Source: a virus. Taken from it: a stretch of 62,157 nt of DNA. The stretch lies in IMG/VR virus record IMGVR_UViG_3300025294_000001. One strand, written 5' to 3'. Position numbers and translations under genes: made by a program. A model generated the notes under the pieces. That model ran no database searches. It had not been told where the DNA came from and was given only the letters and a program-made list of their open reading frames with translations. Each line of letters starts with the position of its first letter. Within the stretch, counting starts at the first letter, position 1. Positions 4,150 through 60,989 of the stretch are shown here, piece after piece.

Positions 4150-4908
4150 ATGAAAGTAGAAGAATTAGTATATGGATATAAAGGAAATGAAACTTATTTA
4201 ACGTTATATCTCAGCAAAGTTAGTGTTGAGGACTTAAAAACATTACAGCACCGGGCAGGTGTCTACATGATTTATAGTAAAGAGGATGAATTAATGTATG
4301 TAGGGGAGACAACAAGTATTCCAAGACGAATGGCTAATCACTTATCTCCTAATCACAGTAAAAAAGAAATTACAAAAGAATCAGTTGGGTATATTCTCTA
4401 TGCTTATTTAAAATGTGACAGATATGAACGAAGTATTATTGAGGGGTTGTTAGTTCATAAGTATCAACCAGCTTTAAACTGTAATGATGAAATGAGGGGT
4501 GACGCATCCTCTAAAGTGGACAAAGCCGTTCAATATGACGCACTATACTACGCTAGAAATACTGATATTAGGTCGTTCGTTATTGCAAGGGCGTTAAACG
4601 TTGACAATGAATATATCAATAGCATTCGTAACTATGGTTGTTTTAACCATTCAGAACTACCTAACAACTACATCCCTAAAGTAATCATTACACAAGAATT
4701 TATTGATAATGCTGTTATTTCAAGAGAACCTATAAACCAAACGGTATTCAATCAAATTCGAGAATTGATTGAAGAAGGTTCTATGAAGAAAGTTGAGATC
4801 GCACGAAAGTTCGGGATTTCCCCAGCTTCTATGACACGTATGTACCATTTGGACACTAATAAGTATCGAAAGTGGGAGGAACAACGAACAGGAAAGGCGG
4901 TAGCTTAA
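4150..4908 (+). CDS. GIY-YIG nuclease with C-terminal HTH (free-standing homing-endonuclease-like)
   Basis: GVYMIY...LMYVGET, then PRRMANH (Arg), then ERSIIEGLL...ALN (Glu/Asn), in GIY-YIG order. C-terminal KKVEIARKFGISPASMTRM looks like an HTH. Confidence 0.7.
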   Translation: MKVEELVYGYKGNETYLTLYLSKVSVEDLKTLQHRAGVYMIYSKEDELMYVGETTSIPRRMANHLSPNHSKKEITKESVGYILYAYLKCDRYERSIIEGLLVHKYQPALNCNDEMRGDASSKVDKAVQYDALYYARNTDIRSFVIARALNVDNEYINSIRNYGCFNHSELPNNYIPKVIITQEFIDNAVISREPINQTVFNQIRELIEEGSMKKVEIARKFGISPASMTRMYHLDTNKYRKWEEQRTGKAVA

Positions 4909-5096: not shown

Positions 5097-5133
5097 TGTC
5101 TCAAAATAGGTTTGACATGCAAGTACCTAAGTG
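5097..5133 (+). promoter_or_regulatory. phage-specific promoter, class M, copy 2
   Basis: TGTCTCAAAA-N11-TGCAAGTACCTAAGTG, 21-nt offset. Confidence 0.6.
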
Positions 5134-5157
5134 AAGTTCACTTTTGGAGGTATTTGT

Positions 5158-6129
5158 ATGTATACATTAAATTCATTTTTTGCTGGTGCAGGTGGTTTTG
5201 ATTTAGGATTCTTACAAGCTGGTTTTAAAATAGTTGGGGCTTATGAGTGGGATTCCTTTGCTGTAGAAAGCTACAAAGCAAACATTGATCCAGGGATTGA
5301 AGTTACAGATGTTAATGAATTAACTGGTGCGGATTTAAAGAAAGCTGACGTTTGGACATTCGGCTTCCCATGTCAGGATTTATCTAATAATGGGTGTAAA
5401 ACTGGTATTATAGATGGTTACCGTTCTAGGACATTCTTTGAGATTATGAGATTACTGGACGAGGTAGAAGAAAAGCCATCTATCTTATTAGCTGAGAACG
5501 TCAGAGGATTAAAGAAGTATCTTCATATATTAGAAGAAGAGTATGATAAGGCTGGCTATAAAATGTACTACACTCTTTACAATAGTAAATGGTGGGGTGT
5601 GCCACAAAGCCGTGACAGATATTTTGTGATTGGTGTTAGAAAAGATATTGCTAGTACATTCCAGTTCCCTGAGGAACAGCATGACTTTGTACCAGTTCTA
5701 TATGATTTCCTAGAAGATGATAATAGTGTACCTGTCAATTTATATATGGAACGTCCTTTAAATTACATTGAGTTAGGCATGGAGGGCGAGGCTATTATGA
5801 TTCGTGAAGCGGTCAAGAAAGGCTATAACCTAGCTAATATTGGCGACACGGTAAATATCACGTATCCGAATAGTAAAACGAGACGTGGACGTATTGGAAA
5901 GCAAATCTCACAAACTCTTTCTACTGGACTAGAACATGTAATCATAACTAAGGATATGAGGGCAAGACGATTTACACCGAGAGAGTACGCACGATTACAG
6001 GGATTCCCTGAATCATATAAACAAGTAGTCTCAAATACTCAGTTCTATAAACAACTAGGTAACGCAGTCACAGTACCAGTAGCTTTCGCTATAGCGGTAC
6101 AAATAAAACAATTCTTAGCCAACTCTTAA
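5158..6129 (+). CDS. DNA (cytosine-5)-methyltransferase
   Basis: Motifs in canonical order: FAGAGG (I), FPCQDLS (IV), ENV (VI), QSRDR (VIII), GNAV (X). ATG 5158 follows the SD GGAGG. Confidence 0.9.
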   Translation: MYTLNSFFAGAGGFDLGFLQAGFKIVGAYEWDSFAVESYKANIDPGIEVTDVNELTGADLKKADVWTFGFPCQDLSNNGCKTGIIDGYRSRTFFEIMRLLDEVEEKPSILLAENVRGLKKYLHILEEEYDKAGYKMYYTLYNSKWWGVPQSRDRYFVIGVRKDIASTFQFPEEQHDFVPVLYDFLEDDNSVPVNLYMERPLNYIELGMEGEAIMIREAVKKGYNLANIGDTVNITYPNSKTRRGRIGKQISQTLSTGLEHVIITKDMRARRFTPREYARLQGFPESYKQVVSNTQFYKQLGNAVTVPVAFAIAVQIKQFLANS

Positions 6130-11106: not shown

Positions 11107-12030
11107 ATGAATGAGTTTGAACAAGTACCTGAAACGTATGAGGCTGATAACCAAGAGTTTGACGCCTTATATGTTATGGCATGGTTAATGGTTATTCAGG
11201 CATTAATGAAACTATTACGTTTGCCTCAGGCTACTACTAGTACACAAATGTTACAAATGGAACGTCAAGTAAATACTGAGGTAAGGGCTATATTTACTAA
11301 CCTTGAACGTAAGGCTGTAAATATGGCTACTACTAAAGTAACTGAGGCTTATATGGAAGGCGTCTCTTATTCTCGTACAGCGAAAGCACAAGAAAGTAAA
11401 TTGATTGAGGTTAAGGGTAAGGACTTAAATGACAGTCATAAGCAAAGGCTAAATAAGATGATTAGTCAAACACAAAGTGATTTATTAAAGGCTACTCATA
11501 ATACTCAAAACAATGTGAAGCAATTAGTTAGAACTGTGGTTTCTAAAGAGATCAGTGGGACAGGGTATGGCGGTAAGATTGGTAAGCAGAAACACATGGC
11601 AGCTAGAATTGAAAAACAATTAAGAAAACAATTTATAGAGGCTGGAATTAAGGACTGTGACGTTGCAATAATTGGTCGTGATAAAAGAAAGTGGAAACTC
11701 AAAACTTATAGTTCGATGGTCACACGCACGAAAATGAATATGGCTTATATTGATGCTATTCGTGAAGAGGCGTTACAAGATGGTTCTGACTTAGCTATCA
11801 TTTCTACTAAACCTGATACGGCTGACGAATGTAAAAACTATGAGGGCATGATTATTTCATTAAATGGCTTAACGGCTGGTTATCTTACTTATGATGAAAT
11901 CAAACAATCAAAGGCTTGCTTCCATCCTAATTGTGGTCACTTTGTAAGACCTGTAGGCGGTATTGATTGGATACCTAAGAATCTACTGAAAATACATGAG
12001 AAACAAATGAGTAAGTATAGGGGCAATTAG
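11107..12030 (+). CDS. head morphogenesis protein (SPP1 gp7 / Mu F-like)
   Basis: Lies after the portal gene. C-terminal CFHPNCGHFVRP resembles the conserved HPNC motif of this family. Confidence 0.65.
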   Translation: MNEFEQVPETYEADNQEFDALYVMAWLMVIQALMKLLRLPQATTSTQMLQMERQVNTEVRAIFTNLERKAVNMATTKVTEAYMEGVSYSRTAKAQESKLIEVKGKDLNDSHKQRLNKMISQTQSDLLKATHNTQNNVKQLVRTVVSKEISGTGYGGKIGKQKHMAARIEKQLRKQFIEAGIKDCDVAIIGRDKRKWKLKTYSSMVTRTKMNMAYIDAIREEALQDGSDLAIISTKPDTADECKNYEGMIISLNGLTAGYLTYDEIKQSKACFHPNCGHFVRPVGGIDWIPKNLLKIHEKQMSKYRGN

Positions 12031-12174: not shown

Positions 12175-12250
12175 TGGGGTGTAACTCAGTTGGTAGAGTA
12201 ACTGGCTGTTAACCAGTAAGTCGTAGGTTCAAGTCCTACCATCCCAGCCA
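12175..12250 (+). tRNA. tRNA-Asn(GTT)
   Basis: Hand-folded cloverleaf: acceptor TGGGGTG/CATCCCA, anticodon stem ACTGG/CCAGT, loop CTGTTAA, T-loop TTCAAGT, encoded CCA. Confidence 0.8.
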
Positions 12251-12251
12251 T

Positions 12252-12326
12252 TGGAGAGTAGCTTAACGGTAAAGCGGTGTCTTGATAAGGCAAGGAGTGT
12301 AGGTTCGATTCCTACCTTTCCAACCA
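12252..12326 (+). tRNA. tRNA-Ile(GAT)
   Basis: Cloverleaf with anticodon loop TTGATAA, T arm GTAGG-TTCGATT-CCTAC and encoded CCA. There is a G-A mismatch at the top of the anticodon stem. Confidence 0.7.
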
Positions 12327-12332
12327 ATACAT

Positions 12333-12403
12333 GGGGATATGGTGAAGAGGTATCACGTAACACTGTCTATGTTAAATCAGGGGTTCAATTCCCCTTATCC
12401 TCG
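12333..12403 (+). tRNA. tRNA-Asp(GTC)
   Basis: Cloverleaf with anticodon stem TAACA/TGTTA and loop CTGTCTA. Position 37 is T, which is unusual. No encoded CCA. Confidence 0.65.
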
Positions 12404-12444
12404 TTGTAATAACCTTGTGAGTGCCTTAGGACAAACTCTCATAT

Positions 12445-12539
12445 GGAAAGTTGTCAGAGTGGCTTATTGTGATTGGTTGCTAACCAATTAGGGCGATTAA
12501 TAAAAACCCTCACAGGTTCGAATCCTGTACTTTCCTCCA
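12445..12539 (+). tRNA. tRNA-Ser(GCT), class II
   Basis: Anticodon stem ATTGG/CCAAT, loop TTGCTAA, 23-nt variable arm (stem AGGG/CCCT with a 13-nt loop), T arm ACAGG-TTCGAAT-CCTGT, encoded CCA. Confidence 0.7.
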
Positions 12540-12543
12540 ACTT

Positions 12544-12619
12544 GGGGTATTAGTATAACGGCTTATTATGACTGGCTTCCAACCAGTAGACAAGGGTTCG
12601 ATTCCCTTATGCCCCTCCA
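12544..12619 (+). tRNA. tRNA-Gly(TCC)
   Basis: Anticodon stem ACTGG/CCAGT, loop CTTCCAA, T arm AAGGG-TTCGATT-CCCTT, encoded CCA. The D stem is weak. Confidence 0.7.
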
Positions 12620-12623
12620 ATAT

Positions 12624-12697
12624 AAGTTCTTAGTGTAGTGGTAACACGTCAGATTCCAAACCTGAAATCGTGGGTTCGATTCCTACATAACTTGCCA
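12624..12697 (+). tRNA. tRNA-Trp(CCA)
   Basis: Loop TTCCAAA and encoded CCA. Mismatches in the acceptor stem (C6-U67) and at anticodon-stem pair 31-39 (A-C). Confidence 0.55.
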
Positions 12698-29071: not shown

Positions 29072-30004
29072 TTAGAACGGTAAGTCGTCATTGTTGAACG
29101 CTGGTTTCGTCCCATCATCTTCTAAGAAGTTGTATAGCTTAACTTGTGGCTGGAATGCTGGTTCTTCTGCTACTGGTTCTACTGGTGCTGTAATAGGGTA
29201 ATAAACTGTTGGAACTAGTTTCATAGTCGTAGAAATGAATGCACCTGTTTTATGTATGTCCTCAGTGTATGTAGCAAGCTGTTTAAATACGAAACACATT
29301 TGATTATAGGGTACTGTATCCACGTTCTTATTGACCCATTTGATAACAACATTGAGGTCAACTTTATTCTCTATCATTTTAGCTTTCCAATATTCGAACT
29401 CAGAAATAACAATAGGATTAACGTTTTCATTAAACGCTACTTCCTCTGTCTTCTTAACAGGCTTAGGTTCTTCTTTCGGTAAGTCCTGCATATCTTTAGG
29501 TAAATCGGCTTCAACTACCTCAGGGACGTCTTGTTTCTTAGGGCGTCCACCCTTCTTAGTGAAGTCAAACTTTTCTTCTGTACGCTTTTCCCACTCACGA
29601 ATTTTTACCAATGGCTTTAATAAATTAGTGTCGTCATTTAAAGGTGACTCAAATACAATAACATTCTGAAATGCATTACCGTCCTGTATGTACTCTATGT
29701 AATCAATGAATCCGTACTCATATAAAGGCTTTAATAGTTTAATTAGTGTCGGTTTAGATACCCCTAATTTCTTAGCTAGTAATTGCTGGCTGTACTTAAC
29801 CGTATCTTTACCGTTCTTACGGTCAACCATAGTTAATAGCTTTAACCACATACAGAATGACTTTTCGCCAATCTTTTCAAACCAATCATCTACGGTTACA
29901 AAGTGCATAATTGGTAGGTTTAATTGGTGGCGTGTTTTTGTAGCCTTCTCGAAAGTCATTGTTCCTTCTGCTTCTGTTACTGGTGCTAGTGTATCGTTTG
30001 TCAT
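29072..30004 (-). CDS. replication initiator-like winged-helix protein (RepA_N-like)
   Basis: FCMWLKLLTMVDRKNGKDTVKYSQQLLAKKLGVSKPTLIKLLKPLYEYGFIDY fits the plasmid RepA_N / DnaD-type wHTH pattern. Transcribed away from the iterons at 30320. Confidence 0.55.
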   Translation of the reverse strand: MTNDTLAPVTEAEGTMTFEKATKTRHQLNLPIMHFVTVDDWFEKIGEKSFCMWLKLLTMVDRKNGKDTVKYSQQLLAKKLGVSKPTLIKLLKPLYEYGFIDYIEYIQDGNAFQNVIVFESPLNDDTNLLKPLVKIREWEKRTEEKFDFTKKGGRPKKQDVPEVVEADLPKDMQDLPKEEPKPVKKTEEVAFNENVNPIVISEFEYWKAKMIENKVDLNVVIKWVNKNVDTVPYNQMCFVFKQLATYTEDIHKTGAFISTTMKLVPTVYYPITAPVEPVAEEPAFQPQVKLYNFLEDDGTKPAFNNDDLPF

Positions 30005-38072: not shown

Positions 38073-38124
38073 AACAAACCTAAATGAGTTGGGAAGTGTT
38101 TTAGGTTTCACTTCCTGACATCAT

Positions 38125-38205
38125 GGGGGAATAGCTTAACGGAAAAGCATTGCGTGTACAGTTAAATAATAGCAAAGACTAGGGGTTCGAATCCCCTTTC
38201 CCTCG
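38125..38205 (+). tRNA. tRNA-like element with a 16-18-nt anticodon loop
   Basis: Canonical acceptor (GGGGGAA/TTCCCTC), D arm (GCTT/AAGC) and T arm (AGGGG-TTCGAAT-CCCCT). The anticodon stem TTGC/GCAA encloses GTGTACAGTTAAATAATA. Confidence 0.45.
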
Positions 38206-38206
38206 T

Positions 38207-49001: not shown

Positions 49002-49694
49002 ATGAACACAGAAAAAATGATTTTTAACCGTAACGAACCAGTATTCGGACAAGCTATTGAACAACCTTCACAGGAACTTATTAAGAATACATTGGGCCTA
49101 CATAATGCTTCATTAGAAGATGCTTTAAAATACGGTGGCGAATTAACACGTCAAGCGATTGGTTCAATGAACCTAACAATGTCTCGTAAATATATCACTG
49201 TTGATACAAAGATTCACATGTTAGTACCTAATATGTGTCCTGCAATTGGTGGCTGGCATAATGACGGTGTACCTCGTGGGGAACAACTTGACCCTAACGC
49301 AAAATCAAAGCCAAATATTCAATCACAGGAAGAACTTGATAGTTCTATTTTCCATCTATTAGTTACTGGTGATTCTTGCTTAACTCAGTTCATCAAAGAA
49401 AGAGATATTGAATTAGACGTACCTGCTGTACCTGATACAAGTCTTTACAGAATGATGAACGCACAGGTTACTGAGAAAGTAAAGAACGGTGAATTAACAT
49501 CATATGAAATGCCAAGCTGTACCCCTGTTATGTGGGACTGGTGGGAACTTCATACTGGTGTACCTGCTAAGAAACATGAATGGAGATTCTTGATTCGTGT
49601 TACTGAGTCAGACCATATTAAACCTAAAACGGATTTACGTGATGTTATCCGAACTCAACAACAAGGTTATATGCCTATCGGCTTTGGGTGGTAA
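49002..49694 (+). CDS. hypothetical protein with H-x-D...H...R spacing (possible 2OG-Fe(II) oxygenase fold)
   Basis: GGWHNDG, then about 95 aa later ELHTG, then WRFLIRV. ATG 49002 is in frame with track ORF 48993. Confidence 0.3.
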   Translation: MNTEKMIFNRNEPVFGQAIEQPSQELIKNTLGLHNASLEDALKYGGELTRQAIGSMNLTMSRKYITVDTKIHMLVPNMCPAIGGWHNDGVPRGEQLDPNAKSKPNIQSQEELDSSIFHLLVTGDSCLTQFIKERDIELDVPAVPDTSLYRMMNAQVTEKVKNGELTSYEMPSCTPVMWDWWELHTGVPAKKHEWRFLIRVTESDHIKPKTDLRDVIRTQQQGYMPIGFGW

Positions 49695-49696
49695 GA

Positions 49697-50008
49697 ATGG
49701 AATACATTGTTAAAGCTACTCAGAATCTAAACTTAAATGAATATATCGAATTTGAACAACAGTTCAAAGACAAAGCAAAGTCAAGAAGTATAGCTTACCT
49801 TTGGTGGGCTATCTTTGGGGCTTTTGGCGGTCATAGATTCTATTTAGGTAATTACGGTACTGGACTAATTATATTAGTCGTGACGCTGTTCACATTAGGG
49901 CTAGGGGCTATTGTCGGCTGGCTTGACGTACTGAATATTAAACGATTAACCGAGAACGCAAATAGAGAGATTGTATTAAATATAGTGAAGGACGTGAAAC
50001 GAAAGTGA
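49697..50008 (+). CDS. TM2-domain membrane protein
   Basis: YLWWAIFGAFGGHRFYLGNYGTGLIILV matches the TM2 domain signature. ATG 49697 is in frame with track ORF 49688. Confidence 0.6.
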   Translation: MEYIVKATQNLNLNEYIEFEQQFKDKAKSRSIAYLWWAIFGAFGGHRFYLGNYGTGLIILVVTLFTLGLGAIVGWLDVLNIKRLTENANREIVLNIVKDVKRK

Positions 50009-50295
50009 GTCATGACCCTAATATTCTTAGAATGCAAACCTACATAAATAAAGACATTATCGCTACTGTTCCTGATAGAGAGTTATTTGAGGACTTTCAG
50101 GAGAAAAGAGTGACTGATGCAATGCGTGAGGAAATCCATAAAAAGGTTAAGTTTTCATGGACGGACGAGGATGATCTTAATTCGACGGTACTTATTGGCG
50201 AGGTCGCTATTTTACATGTTGATGAATATAAACAACTTTTAACACAGTTAAAAACTTATAAAGAAATAAGTGAGAGAAGAGGGAGACATATATGA
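50005..50295 (+). CDS. hypothetical protein
   Basis: 96-aa ORF, overlap-coupled. Confidence 0.5.
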   Translation: MSHDPNILRMQTYINKDIIATVPDRELFEDFQEKRVTDAMREEIHKKVKFSWTDEDDLNSTVLIGEVAILHVDEYKQLLTQLKTYKEISERRGRHI

Positions 50296-50714
50296 AACGA
50301 GTTTATTTAGCTTCACCATTCTTTAATGTAAGAGAGGTAGAACTAGTAAAACAGGTTGAAAATATTCTAGCTGCTAAAGGTCTTGAAGTGTTCTCACCGA
50401 TGCGTGACCAAATGACAAACCTTGAAGCTGGAACACGTCACTGGTCAATTGAAACATTCCGAAACGATGTTAAATACATTGATTGGGCTGAGGTAGTTGT
50501 AACTATCTATCACGGTAATTATTCTGATAGTGGTACAGCATGGGAATTAGGTTACGCTTATGGAACTAATAAACCAGTTATTGTTGTACATGTAGGTGAA
50601 GACAGCAACTTAATGGTACATGAGGGCGGTCATGCAAACATTACCTTAGAAGAGTTAGTTAACTATAATTTTGATAAGTTACCTAGTTCTTTCTATGAAG
50701 GTAAAATGTTTTGA
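50292..50714 (+). CDS. nucleoside 2-deoxyribosyltransferase-like protein
   Basis: VYLASPFFN near the N-terminus and GTAWELGYAYG (catalytic Glu context) fit the family pattern. Confidence 0.65.
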   Translation: MKRVYLASPFFNVREVELVKQVENILAAKGLEVFSPMRDQMTNLEAGTRHWSIETFRNDVKYIDWAEVVVTIYHGNYSDSGTAWELGYAYGTNKPVIVVHVGEDSNLMVHEGGHANITLEELVNYNFDKLPSSFYEGKMF

Positions 50715-51010
50715 GGTTTGGATTATTAGAGTGGATGAATAGGAGACAGCGACAAATCCTAGTCCACTCTTTTTTATATTACCAATTAAACGAAAACATA
50801 ATTGATGATTCTACTTTTGATAAATGGTCAAAAGAACTATATGAAGCAATGCAAAATAATCCTGACGTAGCAAAAAGATCAGTTTACTATAAAGACTTTT
50901 TGGAGTTCGACGGTTCAAGTGGGTATGACTTACCATACGCCAACCCTGAGGTTCAACACAGTGGATATAGATTACTTAAAATACACGCTGAAAAGAGGAA
51001 AAAGAAATGA
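50711..51010 (+). CDS. hypothetical protein
   Basis: 99-aa ORF, TTG start overlapping the upstream stop. Alternative ATG at 50735. Confidence 0.45.
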   Translation: MRFGLLEWMNRRQRQILVHSFLYYQLNENIIDDSTFDKWSKELYEAMQNNPDVAKRSVYYKDFLEFDGSSGYDLPYANPEVQHSGYRLLKIHAEKRKKK

Positions 51011-51438: not shown

Positions 51439-51503
51439 TAACCAGGGGCGAGGAAACTTGCCTCTTTTACATTTCTATTACAAAAGGAGGATTCACCTGT
51501 AAA

Positions 51504-51833
51504 ATGACTGACTTTTATAAGGTTAAGTGTACAAGAGTTAAAGACGGTGACACGTTCGTAGGTGATGTTACTTTTGGTTCTTTTAACATGACTTTACATG
51601 ACCAAGTATTCCGTTTGATGGGCGTTGATACACCTGAGAGACATGAGGAACTTTACTATGAGGCAACTGAATTTACAGCCCAACATATTGAGGGAAAAGA
51701 ATTTACAGTGTTTCTACATGGAAAGGATTCTTTTGGACGATGGTTAACTGACGTTTACTTGAACGGAAATTTAAACACTAGTTTTAATGATTCTTTATTG
51801 AAAGAAGGGTTAGCGAAAGTATTCAAAAAATAA
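51504..51833 (+). CDS. thermonuclease (SNase)-like protein
   Basis: VKDGDTFVGD...FRLMGVDTPE matches the staphylococcal nuclease core motifs. SD AAGGAGG. Confidence 0.6.
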   Translation: MTDFYKVKCTRVKDGDTFVGDVTFGSFNMTLHDQVFRLMGVDTPERHEELYYEATEFTAQHIEGKEFTVFLHGKDSFGRWLTDVYLNGNLNTSFNDSLLKEGLAKVFKK

Positions 51834-51848
51834 AAAGGTGGTTTTAAA

Positions 51849-52517
51849 ATGAGGAAAGCAATAACAACTTTAGCATTAATGGGTGGAATTTTATTTGTAG
51901 GTGGACAAGATGCGTTTGCTTATGAGGTGAAGAGTGGAGATACTATGTCAAAGGTGGCTGAGACTCAGGGAATGAGTTTACATACATTAGTAAGCCTTAA
52001 CCCACAGGTTTCTAACATTGACCGTATCTTTGTAGGACAAACTTTACACACTGACGCAACAGGCGTTGAACAGGAAACAACTAAAGTTGACACTAATATT
52101 AATACTGATACTAGTACTAATGATGATGTCATGACTGCTTTAAATATTAGCGGTGACGACTTTGATTTATTATCTAGATTAGTAGAGGCTGAGGCTGGTA
52201 TTGAACCTTTCGAGGGTAAAATAGCTGTAGCTAATGTAATCTTAAACCGAGTTGAGTCAGACCAATTCCCTAATACAATTGAGGGTGTTATTTACGAGGC
52301 TGGACAGTTTCAACCTGTCAGAAATGGACACATAAATAAAGTACCTTCTGAGGAATCGAAAGAGGCTGTACGAAAGGCTTTATCAGTCAATAGAAGTCTT
52401 GGAGGAAACTCTTTATACTTCTATGATCCACGTTATAGCGACGAGTCGGCAAAGCGTTGGTTTAATACTTTAGAGACAACTATGACAATCGGAAATCACG
52501 TATTCAAAACAGAATAG
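51849..52517 (+). CDS. secreted LysM plus SleB-type cell-wall hydrolase
   Basis: Signal-like N-terminus, LysM (YEVKSGDTMSKVAETQGMSLHTLVSLNP), T/D/N linker, and SleB/Hydrolase_2-like LSRLVEAEAG...VANVILNRV...GQFQP. Confidence 0.7.
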   Translation: MRKAITTLALMGGILFVGGQDAFAYEVKSGDTMSKVAETQGMSLHTLVSLNPQVSNIDRIFVGQTLHTDATGVEQETTKVDTNINTDTSTNDDVMTALNISGDDFDLLSRLVEAEAGIEPFEGKIAVANVILNRVESDQFPNTIEGVIYEAGQFQPVRNGHINKVPSEESKEAVRKALSVNRSLGGNSLYFYDPRYSDESAKRWFNTLETTMTIGNHVFKTE

Positions 52518-52526
52518 TCATAAGAA

Positions 52527-52562
52527 AAGGACAGGGGATGTATTCCCTTGTCCTTATTTTTT
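52527..52562. terminator. bidirectional terminator
   Basis: 11-bp stem AAGGACAGGGG/CCCTTGTCCTT, with an A-run upstream and a T-run downstream. Lies between convergent genes. Confidence 0.75.
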
Positions 52563-53723
52563 ATTTAAATTATCTGCACAAGCTGTAAGGATTGAAGTTA
52601 TACCACCCTCACCATTTCCACTAAATTGTATTAGTCCTGTATTAGATAGGAATGCACCATATTTACCCCAATAATCAATATCTATTTCCCATTTAACTTT
52701 ACTAATAGCCTCAAATATTTCTTTATCTTCCCTGTGTAAATCATGTCTAGCATGATGAATAAACTTTGCTATACCCTTCAAAGCATAATTCTTCTCTAAG
52801 ACATATTTCCCCTTTGTATCTATATCAGGAGGTAAGTTATAGAACATTTCATTTAGAGTATCATTTGTCTTTGTTTTAAACTCTAAATAATTATCCTCAT
52901 TGATAAAGTTATAATCCTTCTTATACTCATACCAGTACAATAACTTTGTAATAGCATATACAGTAGTTAGAAGAATTGTATTAGGGTTATTTGATTTAAT
53001 AGACATCTTATTAAATTCAATACCGTAATGTTTTAAATATCTATTTGACTCAGCAAGTTCCCTAGCTAGACGACTGAAAATGTCAGTCTGTGCTAATCGG
53101 ATAGTAGCGTTTCTAGATGGTCGCTGTGCTAAGTTATTTAAATCATGGAATAACTGTTTTTCCTCTTCTTCAGTTAGGTTGTTAAAAATAACGATAGGTA
53201 TAACCATTTCTTTTAGATTCTCTAATAAGTCTCTATATTTGTTTCTAACAGCTTTATCTTTAACCTTGTTAATTCTACCCTGTAACTCTCTAATAGCCTC
53301 AGATATACCGTAAAAACGGTGCTGTCCATCATTTATAGATAGCTTTGAGTTTCTAGTGTCTATAGCTACCTTCTTTTGTGATTCATCATAGAAGATGTTT
53401 CCTCGTGCTGTAACTGTAATCCCTGAGAAAAATCTCATACTATAAGGATTCTCAACGCCTGATAAAACATACATTTTAATTTTTGAAACACGTCTAGGTA
53501 CTATATCCCTTTGAACGTCAGGGAATACTTGTAGGAAGTCCATTAAGTCTTTAAATTTCAAGACTGTTGTAAAGACTTCTCTTCCAAACTGTTTCCCCTT
53601 AATTCCGCTAATAGTTGCCATATGACTCAAAGAAAGATCATGTTCTCGTTTTGCTTTTAACATAGCCTCAACCTCGTGTCTTGATGGATTACTTAACATA
53701 TCTAGTTCTAACGCTTTCCCCAA
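52554..53723 (-). CDS. DGQHR-domain (DndB-like, ParB/Srx-fold) protein
   Basis: Motifs DVQRDI, INDGQHRF and QLFHDLNN in the order typical of DndB/DGQHR proteins. TTG start 7 nt after the SD AGAGGTG. Confidence 0.7.
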   Translation of the reverse strand: MGKALELDMLSNPSRHEVEAMLKAKREHDLSLSHMATISGIKGKQFGREVFTTVLKFKDLMDFLQVFPDVQRDIVPRRVSKIKMYVLSGVENPYSMRFFSGITVTARGNIFYDESQKKVAIDTRNSKLSINDGQHRFYGISEAIRELQGRINKVKDKAVRNKYRDLLENLKEMVIPIVIFNNLTEEEEKQLFHDLNNLAQRPSRNATIRLAQTDIFSRLARELAESNRYLKHYGIEFNKMSIKSNNPNTILLTTVYAITKLLYWYEYKKDYNFINEDNYLEFKTKTNDTLNEMFYNLPPDIDTKGKYVLEKNYALKGIAKFIHHARHDLHREDKEIFEAISKVKWEIDIDYWGKYGAFLSNTGLIQFSGNGEGGITSILTACADNLNKK

Positions 53724-53896
53724 TATATATACACCTCTTCTATATAGTTTGTTTCACCTCACTACTTCATTATAACTAATTCCTAATAAATTACATAGAA
53801 TATTATTGGTAAACTTACATATAATAGGAAGTGGTGTGATTTACGTCACACTAACTTTTTGGTATCTCTTCAAATAATAGGAAGTTAAAAAGACAC

Positions 53897-53933
53897 GAAA
53901 AAACCCACGAACCGTTGAGGAACGTGGGTTTTC
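53897..53933. terminator. bidirectional terminator-like hairpin upstream of the DGQHR cassette
   Basis: Stem CCCACG/CGTGGG flanked by A6 and T4. Confidence 0.5.
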
Positions 53934-54257
53934 TCTGTAAGGTCAAACAAACAAAATAACTATGTACGGTGTTTGTTCTATAAAAAACTAATTAAGTTAA
54001 GTTAGTTATTATGTTACACTAAGTTATACATAATGTAAAGAGGTGAATGTAATAATAACTAAGTAATTATCAAAATCTTTCGTTTTTCTTCATATAAACT
54101 AAAGTTTTATACAGCTAAACATTACCAAACTTCACAAATATTTCACTTGATTTTTTAGGGAAGTTGAGTGAATCTCATTGTAATTTAAGAAACAATACGG
54201 TAACATAGTGAGTATAACTGAGTATAACTTACATTAACTTAAAATAAGGCAAGTGGG

Positions 54258-54500
54258 GTGCTTATCGTGTCTAACACGAAAACAAAGAATTTAACTGTAA
54301 CATTAACTATGGAGGAACATGAGGACGTAGAATTTTTAGTAAACTATTTCCAAGAACAATCTATATCTAATGTAACTAAAAGTGACGTTATTAAATTTAT
54401 GATAAAACAGATGAGAAAAACAGTAGAGAATGATTTAGTTAAAGACGTTAATAAACTTATAAAAGATGCTGAAAAAGATAATGAAGAATCTAATAAATAA
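54258..54500 (+). CDS. ribbon-helix-helix-like protein (related to ORF 1309)
   Basis: GTG start after AAGTGGGG. KNLTVTLTMEEHEDVEFLVNYF fits an RHH pattern. The upstream DNA shares ATAACTTACATT with the region before ORF 1309. Confidence 0.45.
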   Translation: MLIVSNTKTKNLTVTLTMEEHEDVEFLVNYFQEQSISNVTKSDVIKFMIKQMRKTVENDLVKDVNKLIKDAEKDNEESNK

Positions 54501-54580
54501 TAAAATAATATCTATACAACTACATATTAGGACGAATAGAGTGTGATGCATATATCCACTCTATTTTTTATGCCTTTTTT

Positions 54581-54645
54581 ATTAGTACTAACATTAGTAT
54601 TAAATTTAGTATTGACATTAATATTAGTTATGGTATTATTAATCT
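54581..54645. repeat. palindromic-hexamer repeat block F (overlaps the parA promoter)
   Basis: ATTAGTACTAACATTAGTATTAAATTTAGTATTGACATTAATATTAGTTATGGTATTATTAATC. Confidence 0.7.
54612..54639 (+). promoter_or_regulatory. early host-type promoter of the parA operon
   Basis: TTGACA-16 nt-TATTAT, then TCTCGTAAGG. Embedded in a hexamer-repeat block. Confidence 0.6.
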
Positions 54646-54692
54646 CGTAAGGTTCATTGACAACAAAATAAAAACTAAAGGCGGTATTTAAA

Positions 54693-55499
54693 ATGACAGC
54701 AAAAGTTATCTGTATCAACAATAACAAAGGTGGCGTTCTAAAGACGACAACTACTACGAATTTGGCTGGGGTTTTAGCTAATCAAGGTAAGAAAGTTCTT
54801 ATTATCGACGCTGATAATCAGGCTAACGTTTCATTAGCTTTTGGTTTGATTCCTGAGGATTTCAAACTAACTATTTATGACGTTCTGACTGGTAGTGTTC
54901 CTGCTGAGGAATGTATAGTGGAAATTAAAGATCATAAAAACATTCATATTTTACCTTCTAATAGAGAACTGGTTTCTTTCGAGTTTAAAGTGATTGGCAA
55001 TAGAGACAAATTCCCTGAACCATTTTATTTAATGGTGGATACTTTAGACCGCTTAAAAGAACAATATGACTATATTCTAATTGATACACCACCGAGTTTA
55101 GGTGTAATGAATGGTAATGTTTTTACATACAGTGATTATGTTATAATTCCATTTGTACCTGAATTATTTTCAATGCGTTCACTGGTTGAGGTAGTTCGTA
55201 CTATTAGAGAATTTAAAGATGTTCATAATCCTGATTTAGAAATTTTAGGGGTTCTAAGAACTATGGTTGAATATCGCACCAATGTTCATAGCGACGTAAT
55301 TCAAGAAACAAATAGATACGCAAGTCAAAACGATGTGCATGTGTTTGATACGGTTATACCTAAGTCAGCACAATTTACAAAGTCAGTTCTATATAATCAA
55401 TTACCAGCAACGTTATTACCTGAAAAGAAACGTGACAAGGCTGATTTATATTATGAGTTATGGGCTGAAATTGAAGGGTATCTTGAAGGAGGTAATTAA
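54693..55499 (+). CDS. parA: ParA/Soj-family partition ATPase
   Basis: Deviant Walker A NNNKGGVLKTT, plus DADNQAN and LIDTPPS motifs. 268 aa. Confidence 0.85.
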   Translation: MTAKVICINNNKGGVLKTTTTTNLAGVLANQGKKVLIIDADNQANVSLAFGLIPEDFKLTIYDVLTGSVPAEECIVEIKDHKNIHILPSNRELVSFEFKVIGNRDKFPEPFYLMVDTLDRLKEQYDYILIDTPPSLGVMNGNVFTYSDYVIIPFVPELFSMRSLVEVVRTIREFKDVHNPDLEILGVLRTMVEYRTNVHSDVIQETNRYASQNDVHVFDTVIPKSAQFTKSVLYNQLPATLLPEKKRDKADLYYELWAEIEGYLEGGN

Positions 55500-55501
55500 T
55501 A

Positions 55502-55783
55502 ATGTCAACATTAGCTGGAGAAGGTCAAGGTAGAGGGCGTAAAAACCGCCCTAAGGTTACCTTTGACAATGTATCAGGTGAAACAGTTAAAACTAAAATT
55601 GATGAATTTTATGCACCTGTGGAAAAGATTGAGAAAAAACAAGTTTCTATATATTTAGATACTGACGTTATTTCTGCAATGGATAAATGGATTGATTCTT
55701 TACCTGAGAAGAAGAAGAAAGGGGCTAGAAGTGATTTAGTCAATAACTTCCTGAAACAAGTTTTCAACATTAGACAAGGTTAA
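55502..55783 (+). CDS. small centromere-binding-protein candidate (ParG-like, C-terminal RHH)
   Basis: 93 aa, directly after parA. Basic disordered N-terminus, then KKQVSIYLDTDVISAMDKWI...RSDLVNNFLKQVF (strand-helix-helix). Confidence 0.55.
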   Translation: MSTLAGEGQGRGRKNRPKVTFDNVSGETVKTKIDEFYAPVEKIEKKQVSIYLDTDVISAMDKWIDSLPEKKKKGARSDLVNNFLKQVFNIRQG

Positions 55784-55798
55784 TTCCTTGTCTTTTTT
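55773..55798 (+). terminator. rho-independent terminator
   Basis: Stem GACAAGG/CCTTGTC followed by T6. Confidence 0.7.
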
Positions 55799-55914
55799 GT
55801 TACCTTATATAGTAATGATTATTTTAAATGAAACAATTACCATATACTATATACGGTAAAGGTGTTATGATTCTAAGGCATTTATTTTCTCTTTAGAAGG
55901 GTAAGTATAAGTTT

Positions 55915-55989
55915 ATGATAAGAAGTGAAAAGATACTAGTTGTACTATTTATAGTGTGCTGGTCACTCGAACTCATTATGATTGATTAG
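55915..55989 (+). CDS. possible 24-aa hydrophobic peptide (speculative)
   Basis: MIRSEKILVVLFIVCWSLELIMID, with its stop inside a terminator hairpin. The SD is weak. Confidence 0.2.
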   Translation: MIRSEKILVVLFIVCWSLELIMID

Positions 55990-56021
55990 GAACGAGTTTT
56001 TATTTTGTTCCTACTTTTTTT
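55988..56021 (+). terminator. rho-independent terminator
   Basis: Stem AGGAAC/GTTCCT followed by T8. Confidence 0.6.
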
Positions 56022-56031
56022 AAATTAACCC

Positions 56032-56060
56032 TTGCAAAAGTGTTTCACTTTTGATAAGAT
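56032..56060 (+). promoter_or_regulatory. early host-type promoter
   Basis: TTGCAA-17 nt-TAAGAT. The spacer is nearly identical to the promoter at 561. Confidence 0.65.
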
Positions 56061-56102
56061 GATTACAGATAAGAAAAGCGACTAATTAAATTAAGTGAGG
56101 TA

Positions 56103-56744
56103 ATGGAAATGACGGAATTAAACAGCACAGAAGGAACGGTATATGGGTACGCTAGGGTTTCAACTTTACAACAGGATTTAACTTTACAAATTGAGGCACT
56201 ATTAAATTATGGTATCAAAGCTGAGAATATTTACAGCGATAAGAAAACAGGTAAAGATTTAGACCGTGACGAACTAAAGGAATTACTTTCTGTTGTTAAG
56301 AAGGGTGATTTAATTATAGTTAAAAAGCTAGACCGTTTAGGACGTTCGGTTTCACAGGTTACAAATTTGATTGAGGAACTAACTGAAAAGGGTATTTATA
56401 TTAAGTCCATTGACGACAATGTAGATACTTCTAATCAATCACCTATGTCAAAAGCTATGATGCAATTACTAGTTATGTTTGCGGAAATGGAAAGAGGGTT
56501 TATTGAAGAACGTACTAAACCAGCTATTCAAAACGCTAGGGAAAAGGGCGTAAAATTTGGTAGACCTGAAACAAATAAAACTGTATATGAAATGGCTGTA
56601 AAGGATTATTTAGATGGATTTATGACCTCTAAAGAAATCATTAAGAAATATGGTAAGGGTTCAAATGGTAAGGATATTATAACCGAGGCTACGTTATTTA
56701 GACGTATCAAAAAGGAAAGAGAAAAAAGGGGGATTAATAACTAA
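56103..56744 (+). CDS. small serine recombinase (resolvase/invertase type)
   Basis: YGYARVSTLQQDLTLQ catalytic-Ser motif, DRLGRS, and a C-terminal HTH. About 210 aa. Alternative start at ATG 56109. Confidence 0.85.
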   Translation: MEMTELNSTEGTVYGYARVSTLQQDLTLQIEALLNYGIKAENIYSDKKTGKDLDRDELKELLSVVKKGDLIIVKKLDRLGRSVSQVTNLIEELTEKGIYIKSIDDNVDTSNQSPMSKAMMQLLVMFAEMERGFIEERTKPAIQNAREKGVKFGRPETNKTVYEMAVKDYLDGFMTSKEIIKKYGKGSNGKDIITEATLFRRIKKEREKRGINN

Positions 56745-59045: not shown

Positions 59046-59093
59046 TTAGTAGGTATTAATACTAGTACTAACTTTAGTGTTAAATTTAAATTT
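59046..59093. repeat. palindromic-hexamer repeat block G
   Basis: TTAGTAGGTATTAATACTAGTACTAACTTTAGTGTTAAATTTAAATTT, directly upstream of a -35 box. Confidence 0.7.
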
Positions 59094-59098
59094 ATGTA

Positions 59099-60930: not shown

Positions 60931-60986
60931 TTAGTGACTATTAATATTAGTACTAGTATTAACTTTAGTACTAACTTTAAATTTAA
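60931..60986. repeat. palindromic-hexamer repeat block H
   Basis: TTAGTGACTATTAATATTAGTACTAGTATTAACTTTAGTACTAACTTTAAATTTAA, directly upstream of a -35 box. Confidence 0.7.
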
Positions 60987-60989
60987 TTG

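Follow-up and report, generated by a model that had tools for sequence, protein, structure and literature searches.

The closest described relative of the gene considered here is DndB, which regulates its own expression by binding palindromes in its promoter (PMC4507180) and which is described as an ATP-dependent repressor, a DndB-like protein being able to bind both ATP and GTP (PMC12704722). The motifs listed for the family comprise a QR pair, a near-invariant DGQHR pentapeptide and FxxxN (PMC4619093). A lone dndB gene is also known from plasmidial C. difficile phages of the phiCD5763 group, in which it served only as a polymerase chain reaction marker and was assigned no function (PMC5786514). 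In this study, a stand-alone DGQHR (DndB-like) gene was analysed in the virus record IMGVR_UViG_3300025294_000001 of IMG/VR, an apparently complete siphovirus-type genome of ~62 kb (62,157 nucleotides, analysed over its full length and hereafter called the window). The open reading frame (ORF) at 52554-53723 is a bona fide stand-alone member of the DGQHR/DndB superfamily and lies outside any phosphorothioate or 7-deazaguanine modification system, and the comparison with relatives points to an accessory gene that is old, conserved and dispensable, not to a recent insert. We hold this structural and evolutionary description with high confidence. The phiCD5763-group phages resemble the present element in having a lone dndB-annotated gene on an extrachromosomal siphovirus of a Firmicute; they differ in their size of ~130 kb and in carrying ParM-type, not ParA-type, segregation genes, and the likeness drawn here is one of annotation.

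The family assignment made in the initial annotation from sequence motifs was upheld by profile scores, invariant residues and fold matches. The ORF scored 108 bits against PF14072 (DndB; cut-off 29.1) and 87.2 bits against TIGR03187 (DGQHR; cut-off 58.85). Against TIGR03233, the equivalog model of DndB proper, it reached 53.2 bits, far below the cut-off of 328 bits, and the protein is therefore not DndB proper. TIGR03187 and TIGR03233 were the only NCBIfam models matching the ORF at E <= 1. The Pfam DndB model aligned to residues 40-354 of the protein, and nothing else matches. In an alignment of 34 homologues, Q71-R72, D132-G-Q-H-R136 and F192-x-D-L-N196 are invariant. The AlphaFold2 model (mean predicted local distance difference test score 84.9, with low predicted confidence for the N-terminal 35 residues) gives a ParB/Srx-type fold, and the protein is predicted to consist of a ParB/Srx-type nucleoside triphosphate (NTP)-binding core and a helical domain. 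The best Foldseek matches of the model in BFVD were of the DUF262/GmrS class, namely GmrSD_N/DUF262 and 'DNA-sulfur modification-associated' viral proteins (E 1e-5 to 1e-9). Foldseek against PDB returned mostly spurious GroEL matches, together with weak matches to Noc and SspE (6jiv), and a PDB sequence search with the protein found nothing, so that the PDB searches are uninformative beyond the fold class. The protein thus has in common with the DUF262/GmrS-type N-terminal domains of GmrSD, SspE and BrxU the ParB/Srx-type NTPase fold and the DGQ[HQ]R motif; it differs from them in having neither a DUF1524/HNH nuclease domain nor an adjacent partner nuclease gene. In PADLOC, the DndB model was the only match of the protein, and the neighbouring genes matched no defence model.

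The orphan status proposed in the initial annotation also held within the ORFs checked. Neither the scanned ORFs of the window, which include part of the structural genes, nor the precomputed Pfam annotations of the relatives, which were covered from DNA polymerase I (PolA) to the right end, contained a dnd, dpd or queuosine family. Within this scope, PAPS-reductase/DndC, DndD, DndE, TGT/DpdA-like, QueC/D/E and SspABCD families were all missing, and the partners expected alongside a DpdB (dpdA, dpdC and preQ0 genes) were equally absent from the ORFs covered. Likewise, no dnd, dpd or queuosine gene lies beside clade members in at least 20 other loci. With DndB, the gene therefore shares the full-length architecture and the QR, DGQHR and FxxxN motifs, as well as an operator-like palindrome in its own upstream region. 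It departs from DndB in the TIGR03233 score, in the lack of dndCDE and dndA in the scanned ORFs and beside the clade members examined, in its location on Bacillales phages and plasmids, and in the palindrome itself, which is TGTGA-N6-TCACA and not TACG-N10-CGTA.

The gene order LysM/SleB hydrolase, DGQHR (on the opposite strand), orf80, ParA, small protein and resolvase is kept in all relatives with recognisable flanks (L001-L003, L014-L016, L024-L031, L033, L037, L038, L062-L064 and L066). Across more than 15 distinct syntenic relatives, the identity of the DGQHR protein falls from 100% to 50%, and in the distant ones SleB is 45-50% and ParA 46-60% identical to those of the window. The gene shows no compositional anomaly: the guanine-cytosine (GC) content is 0.33-0.34 in its region, 0.29-0.36 in the adjacent 1-kb windows and 0.29-0.43, a low value throughout, over the whole window. 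A search with orf80 homologues, which are confined to this phage family and always lie between DGQHR and ParA, led to one genome lacking the DGQHR gene, a 57-kb contig of B. cereus group sp. Bc015 (L065; GCA_027716665.1, JAQFUV010000022.1), in which SleB is followed directly by orf80. With ParA 85%, orf80 79%, Ndt 81% and SleB 71% identical to the window, L065 is nearer to it than are the DGQHR-bearing L002, L015, L016 and L027-L030, and it retains, from the region upstream of DGQHR, ~35 bp that are homologous to window 53796-53832. Because L065 is nested among gene-bearing genomes and keeps this upstream remnant, the simplest reading of the sequences is that it lost the gene by secondary deletion. 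In addition, the gene is split into pieces of 217 and 182 amino acids in one B. toyonensis genome. Together with the conserved gene order, this split copy and the loss in L065 indicate that the gene is ancestral to the lineage and dispensable. The locus of L065 (4859-6240) has neither a DGQHR nor an SNase-like gene beside its SleB-type gene, and its orf143 (50%) and SleB (71%) are unusually divergent, a pattern suggestive of modular exchange or of two deletions around the lysis gene.

The initial annotation was largely right about this locus except in its account of origin. It had proposed that the DGQHR gene was inserted as a reversed cassette into an early transcription unit, removing the promoter and leaving a decapitated leader behind, and had named a conserved syntenic context in relatives as the finding that would speak against an insertion. 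In support of this idea, the gene is reverse-oriented with its own promoter and terminator, the sequence beyond the upstream hairpin resembles a leader without a plus-strand promoter or an ORF, and L065 presents an 'empty' site. The comparison with relatives found just such a conserved context, the place and orientation of the gene being unchanged in every other relative to a DGQHR identity as low as 50%, and the position of L065 and its ~35-bp remnant make a deletion simpler. The missing promoter cannot be ascribed to displacement either. In L065, which has no DGQHR gene, the second hairpin still abuts GTAAGG and the promoter-less leader-like sequence is still present, so that the lack of a plus-strand promoter is independent of DGQHR; the leader-like element moreover has a conserved promoter and terminator on the minus strand. 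These observations, together with the unremarkable GC content, contradict a recent insertion, which we regard as very improbable; an insertion at the root of the lineage is the form of this explanation that is left. The coordinates of the features discussed below are collected in Table 1.

Table 1. Features of the DGQHR region and the adjoining partition region (window coordinates).
Feature	Coordinates	Strand	Details
Convergent terminator hairpin and T-run	52527..52565	both	ends the SleB-type late gene (+) and DGQHR (-)
Stand-alone DGQHR (DndB-like) gene	52554..53723	-	389 amino acids, TTG start
Predicted DGQHR promoter core	53757..53774	-	-10 TATAAT (53774..53769), 6 nt, GTGAGG (53762..53757)
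Operator-like region upstream of DGQHR	53803..53885	.	TGTGA-N6-TCACA palindrome between two ~30-bp direct repeats
Predicted ~110-nt non-coding RNA	53896..54004	-	conserved promoter and terminator
Rho-independent terminator hairpin	53898..53933	- (stronger)	flanks GGGUUUUUUCGUGU and CCUUACAGA
Predicted small-RNA promoter	54011..54039	-	-35 TTTACA (54039..54034), 17 nt, -10 TAACAT (54016..54011); promoter scan
orf80 unit	54178..54500	+	predicted promoter TTGTAA (54178), 17 nt, TAACAT (54201-54206); 80-amino-acid ORF 54258-54500
Partition module	54580..55793	+	iterons, ParA, ribbon-helix-helix (RHH)-like protein, terminator
12-bp iterons	54580-54641	+	overlap the ParA promoter (54612-54639)
ParA	54693-55499	+	partition module
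93-amino-acid RHH-like protein	55502-55783	+	directly after ParA
Partition-module terminator	55772-55793	+	after the RHH-like gene

As described in the initial annotation, the DGQHR gene is a self-contained unit in reverse orientation, with its own TATAAT and a shared terminator, on the strand opposite to all its neighbours. A perfect TATAAT stands upstream of the gene in 12 of the 12 sequences inspected, with a GTAAGG-like hexamer 5-7 nt beyond it, mostly GT[AG][AG]GG (GTAAGC in L015 and GAAGG in L016); no good -35 element was found in these 12 sequences. In the window, the hexamer GTGAGG is likely the start of the DGQHR transcript, and a Shine-Dalgarno sequence lies at 53732-53738. The terminator hairpin at the other end (52527-52555) folds on both strands, in agreement with the bidirectional function first assigned to it: the plus strand gives -22.6 kcal/mol (z -5.2) and is followed by a T-run, and the minus strand gives -15.4 kcal/mol (z -3.05). 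The stop codon of the DGQHR gene lies inside the 3' arm of this hairpin, and the hairpin is also found in L065 despite the lack of the gene there. Read along the minus strand, the small-RNA promoter comes first, followed by the RNA and its terminator, then by the operator-like region and the DGQHR promoter, and last by the DGQHR gene and the shared terminator. With the conserved TATAAT, the terminator and the opposite strand, the gene has, as judged from sequence, the independent transcription of a phage moron. The gene also resembles morons in being dispensable; it differs from them in occupying one position across a deep lineage and in its non-deviant GC content, and thus bears no mark of recent acquisition.

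In the operator-like region, the palindrome TGTGA-N6-TCACA at 53835-53850 is perfect and is the sole perfect site in the window, and the direct repeats (repeat family D14) lie at 53803-53832 and 53856-53885. The palindrome is kept in the DGQHR-bearing B. cereus-group relatives L001, L003, L014, L064 and L066; L065, without the gene, has no palindrome and a single copy of the repeat. The palindrome TGTGATTTACGTCACA has the consensus form of Crp/Fnr-family sites. A separate observation is that the only other long minus-strand ORF without a known function (29072-30004, 310 amino acids) gives a weak match to HTH_Crp_2 (E 1e-3).

The leader-like sequence noticed in the initial annotation beside the upstream hairpin is real. 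It spans 53937-54010, resembles the leaders behind early promoters (repeat families D3, D6 and D7) and has, on the plus strand, no ORF except ATG-TTA-CAC-TAA; no sigma-70-like plus-strand promoter with at least 9 of 12 matches was found between 53240 and 54612. A functional plus-strand leader was considered and rejected, since neither the scan nor inspection by eye revealed a promoter and the -10 position falls inside the hairpin. The hairpin at 53898-53933 is likewise real, although not the symmetric bidirectional terminator first described: the minus strand is the stronger, with an invariant U6 behind a fold of -24.9 kcal/mol (z -5.5), and the plus strand gives -20.3 kcal/mol (z -3.05) followed by UUUUCUCU. 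Ten distinct versions of the element were compared (window, L001, L002, L003, L015, L024, L028, L033, L040 and L065). The minus-strand hairpin flanks CCUUACAGA and GGGUUUUUUCGUGU are identical in nine aligned versions, with L065 one base off in each, and the stem is kept with differing sequences among the nine distinct relatives aligned, including compensatory changes at two pairs. A minus-strand promoter is found in all ten versions, consisting of CTTTAC[AT], a spacer of 17-18 nt that differs in sequence, and TAACAT, TATACT, TATAGT or TATCAT. Because of this conserved promoter and terminator on the opposite strand, the 'decapitated leader' is most likely not a scar; the comparison favours a minus-strand gene for an antisense RNA of ~110 nt, in which no ATG-initiated ORF is visible.

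The early leaders of the window share the form GUAAGG, an A-rich stretch and AAAACUAAUUAAGUGAGGU, and the body of the predicted RNA is complementary to them. In RNAduplex calculations, the predicted RNA paired with nine GTAAGG-initiated early leaders at -22 to -39 kcal/mol, compared with -14.5 +/- 4 kcal/mol (minimum -25.6) for 58 other 5' regions used as controls; the resolvase leader (56060-56105), which has no GTAAGG, gave -18.4 kcal/mol, within the control range. In a 7x7 cross-genome duplex matrix, pairing within the same genome was best in six of the seven rows, most clearly for the divergent L002 and L015. An Rfam search with the intergenic region and the RNA gave nothing at the gathering score, and the hits up to E = 1 were chance-level terminator matches. 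The predicted antisense RNA is offered as a good hypothesis rather than as a finding. Such an RNA would mimic the complement of the early leaders and act in trans to damp early transcripts, much as do the c4 RNA of P1/P7, the CI RNA of P4 and the CA RNA of N15, which would be its functional analogues. Like these, it would be a small, terminator-ended RNA of a maintenance/immunity region, complementary to repeated sites in early transcripts that include the Shine-Dalgarno region. It differs from them in that it is wholly predicted, has no sequence or structure match in Rfam, belongs to a Gram-positive host, would be made from its own promoter instead of being processed from the target operon, and has as its predicted target a 5' GUAAGG leader common to many units.

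Two further observations concern these elements. GTAAGG(T/G) lies 6-8 nt after the -10 box of nearly every early-type promoter of the window (plus strand: 597, 680, 1796, 54647, 58509, 59135, 59564, 59975, 61233 and 61947; minus strand: 53762), and the pattern holds in L002, in L015 and in the DGQHR promoter too. It appears to be a conserved start-of-transcript signal and possibly serves as a site for RNA stability, processing or a regulator. The exact 13-mer ACACGAAAAAACC, a flank of the second hairpin, recurs at 11915 (+) in the otherwise divergent 65-kb phage L007, at the end of the ParA operon and between a DGQHR-orf116-orf75 array and this convergent operon; the terminator module thus seems to travel with the par/DGQHR region.

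The genome around the DGQHR gene combines phage and plasmid features. Nearly all genes of the window are on the plus strand. The element has its own replication module (DnaD-like, DnaC-like, DnaB-like, primase and PolA) and the plasmid-like succession of a ParA ATPase, the 93-amino-acid RHH-like protein and a small serine recombinase; no integrase was found among the window ORFs scanned. Contigs of 60-61.7 kb from isolates of B. cereus, B. toyonensis and B. anthracis encode the DGQHR protein in exact or nearly identical form, and for this reason the element seems to belong to the Bacillus cereus group as a plasmid-like prophage (phage-plasmid); the isolates behind GCA_035617975.1 and GCA_002287835.1 are among its carriers. 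Deposited phages offered no useful comparator: a megablast search of INPHARED with window 51500-56000 gave no match, the terminase is at most 51% identical to that of any deposited phage, and tblastn with the DGQHR protein found two gut contigs only, at ~25% identity. In PLSDB, the best match to the protein has 62% identity. Two DGQHR-less candidates for comparison, Bacillus phage PK2 and Parageobacillus phage JGon-2020a, were dropped as too distant, the former having no ParA region and the latter only ParA and a methylase in common with the window.

In the partition module, the promoter of the preceding orf80 unit was identified from sequence and from conservation in relatives, and the RHH label of the small protein derives from the sequence pattern and from the weak match of its L002 orthologue to BrnA_antitoxin (RHH); a PDB search with the 93-amino-acid protein gave no match. 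Arrays of the ~12-bp iteron (TTAGTAYTAAC) at 54580-54641, 59048-59097 and 60939-60988 accompany the ParA promoter and two early promoters, which they overlap or closely precede, and the window holds 24 iteron matches with at most one mismatch, compared with ~7 expected. Centromere-like sites that spread into early promoters recall the arrangement of the phage-plasmid N15.

Beyond the syntenic relatives, the DGQHR clade is confined to mobile elements of Bacillales and related Firmicutes. A profile of the clade matched 547 representatives at E <= 1e-3 in a library of 1.84 billion proteins, of which 29 reached 1e-30 and about eight were full-length with more than 330 bits; the small number of strong matches indicates that the clade is narrow. 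Profile scans of genome contigs and metagenome contigs yielded 7 and 22 loci, respectively, so that statistics of gene context come from small samples. Members with 37-62% identity are found on large plasmids of Cytobacillus (beside xerS), Paenibacillus and Brevibacillus, and dndCDE was present in none of the contexts examined at this level of identity. On viral contigs of 86-116 kb (L017/L018), the DGQHR gene lies immediately upstream of ParA and downstream of an FtsK-like gene, and in L007 it is convergent with ParA. Other members are part of co-directional phage arrays with RusA, NAMPT, DUF1599 or LysM hydrolases, or adjoin GmrSD (L009) or McrBC (L041).

More distant homologues occur in other settings. 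In Heliobacterium mobile (L010, 10001-14685) and in L042 (2116-7044), DGQHR genes of 32% identity are followed by a conserved trio encoding proteins of ~630, ~300 and ~250 amino acids, of which the last is a DUF6339 protein and which have no other Pfam matches; together with the DGQHR gene, the trio may constitute an uncharacterised four-gene system. On conjugative enterobacterial plasmids of the MOBP/MPF_I type (Salmonella pSA20053897.1; L068, 4971-7982), a DGQHR gene is paired with a gene for a 626-amino-acid protein of the PAPS-reductase family (DndC-like), with no other dnd genes beside this pair. On conjugative Vibrio plasmids of the MOBF type (pHLE-202008; L069), a gene annotated as 'DndB' lies among genes for RadC, DUF3560 and a 608-amino-acid protein with a ParB N-terminal domain.

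Since the DGQHR gene of the window lies within a maintenance/immunity region (small RNA, orf80, ParA, RHH protein and resolvase), it is probably expressed in the carrier (plasmid-prophage) state, as far as gene arrangement can indicate. Our best guess for its function is an NTP-gated DNA-binding regulator or conflict factor acting in that state. By analogy with DndB, the protein would bind DNA in an NTP-dependent way, and it would then serve as a regulator or silencer, its target being either transcription of the element itself, possibly starting with its own operator, or competing DNA. The narrower proposal of a carrier-state, NTP-modulated DNA-binding regulator or silencer is made tentatively on this analogy. 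The account as a whole, in which an ancestral orphan DGQHR gene supplies a carrier-state, NTP-gated DNA-binding regulator next to an antisense RNA, seems to us a reasonable one that falls a little short of being probable. A further and rather doubtful extension is that the DGQHR gene and the minus-strand segment 53757-54039 constitute one carrier-state control module, in which the ~110-nt RNA, carrying anti-GUAAGG and anti-Shine-Dalgarno segments, would silence all early units in trans, and the DGQHR protein, encoded downstream on the same strand, would add NTP-gated silencing or exclusion as a second, DndB-like energy-sensing layer. To our knowledge, RNA-based immunity of this kind has not been described for Bacillus phages. 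If such a module exists, it would be the first function of the orphan DGQHR clade outside DNA modification. Several points weigh against this account. The palindrome is missing in the distant DGQHR-bearing L002 and L015; being confined to a B. cereus-group subclade, it cannot be a universal operator. The template modelling scores from Foldseek are modest, and a solved DndB structure was not among the matches. For the RNA, the covariation of the terminator stem is thin (two pairs), and the complementarity to the leaders follows automatically from the sequence similarity. Finally, the settings of the gene in the wider clade, namely co-directional arrays of phage DNA-metabolism genes, McrBC or GmrSD neighbours and a place directly before ParA, suit a function in conflict or an accessory function no less than regulation.

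Two conflict-related roles compete with the proposed carrier-state regulator, and each is less probable. The DGQHR protein might be an anti-defence or establishment factor that protects the incoming element against host defence systems, perhaps by binding DNA or by sequestering a component of nucleases, modification-dependent or other. Its distant homologues (25-28% identity) on Vibrio MOBF plasmids are encoded among RadC, DUF3560 and ParB-N-terminal-domain genes, a set that we take to be typical of plasmid leading regions, and the gene behaves as an accessory one that is gained or lost. Phage proteins with ParB-fold fusions have, moreover, been suggested to act in this way (PMC12704722). We nevertheless consider this role unlikely, because phage genes of this kind are usually early and co-oriented and the DGQHR gene is antisense, with its own weak promoter, in a maintenance region; the plasmid homologues are very distant, and the protein shows no similarity to characterised anti-defence proteins. 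Equally unlikely in our view is a moron for prophage defence or superinfection exclusion, in which a DGQHR/DUF262-like NTPase would sense or bind foreign, possibly modified, DNA and block competing phages or plasmids. The moron architecture (own promoter and terminator, opposite strand), the dispensability of the gene and the GmrSD and McrBC neighbours of L009 and L041 would suit such a role, as would the fold class, which is that of the sensor/NTPase domain in GmrSD- and SspE-type enzymes (PMC4619093). Against it, no nuclease or other effector domain was detected in the protein, the match to the DndB model at residues 40-354 being the only one, PADLOC recognises nothing but DndB, and no known single-gene system has such a composition.

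The initial annotation had further suggested that the protein could be a ParB-fold partner of the adjacent ParA, that is, a centromere-binding or accessory segregation protein. The gene does adjoin ParA in three arrangements (divergent in the window, convergent in L007 and, in L017/L018, co-directional and 22 bp upstream), and it has a weak PHROG match to 'ParB-like partition protein'. This suggestion is weakened by the separate small RHH-like protein after ParA and the promoter iterons, with which ParA looks like a complete type Ib-like system. ParA and the small post-ParA protein also persist without DGQHR in L065, many clade members have no ParA nearby, and the two genes are co-operonic only in the L017/L018 lineage; a partition role is accordingly quite improbable. 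A role in DNA modification is unlikely because no partner enzyme was found. In its most specific form, the protein would be the accessory ATPase of an unrecognised DpdB-like pathway working with the nucleotide-metabolism genes of the phage, and this we regard as extremely improbable. The neighbourhood does hold genes for a nucleoside 2-deoxyribosyltransferase-family protein, a deoxynucleoside monophosphate kinase, a deoxynucleoside kinase, a thymidine kinase and Nlig-Ia; Nlig-Ia recurs near more distant clade members (L019-L023), and Salmonella plasmids pair a distant DGQHR gene with a PAPS-reductase-family gene. On the other side, the scanned ORFs of the window and its relatives lack the enzymes of the known pathways, as set out above, and L065 lost DGQHR yet keeps the nucleotide-metabolism genes. 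A replication initiator, suggested by the nearby AT-rich repeats, was also considered and rejected, because the element has its own DnaD/DnaC/DnaB/primase/PolA module and L065 does without the gene.

The label 'DNA sulfur modification protein DndB' is routinely given to orphan DndB-like genes, and nothing found here makes phosphorothioate DNA. In the present case, mobile elements of Bacillales employ a DGQHR/DndB-superfamily protein as a solitary gene, and the sulfur-modification label of the databases is misleading. A coherent DGQHR clade is fixed in the maintenance region of a widespread phage-plasmid of B. cereus, B. toyonensis and B. anthracis and is also present on large Bacillales plasmids. 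The natural knockout L065, the split pseudogene of B. toyonensis and the candidate operator at 53835-53850 together provide a genetic system for a lone DGQHR/ParB-fold NTPase. Should the predicted antisense RNA that mimics the leaders prove real, it would represent a Gram-positive equivalent of the immunity RNAs of P1, P4 and N15.

Some other genes of the window were noted in passing. A stand-alone Nlig-Ia gene (the NAD+-binding domain of DNA ligase; 50292-51010) and the gene of the nucleoside 2-deoxyribosyltransferase family (49688-50008) lie 1.5-2.5 kb from the DGQHR gene, and an Nlig-Ia gene is again found ~1.7 kb upstream of the more distant clade members L019-L023. Two adjoining genes shortly before the terminase region encode a GIY-YIG/HTH_7 protein (4150-4908) and an orphan C-5 cytosine DNA methyltransferase (5131-6129; PF00145, E 2e-65), and the methyltransferase may serve self-methylation of the phage against host restriction. 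The window also carries seven tRNA genes. Six of them (Asn, Ile, Asp, Ser, Gly and Trp) are grouped at 12175-12697 within the structural-gene region, and the seventh (Tyr) lies at 38124-38206, directly ahead of the DNA polymerase gene.

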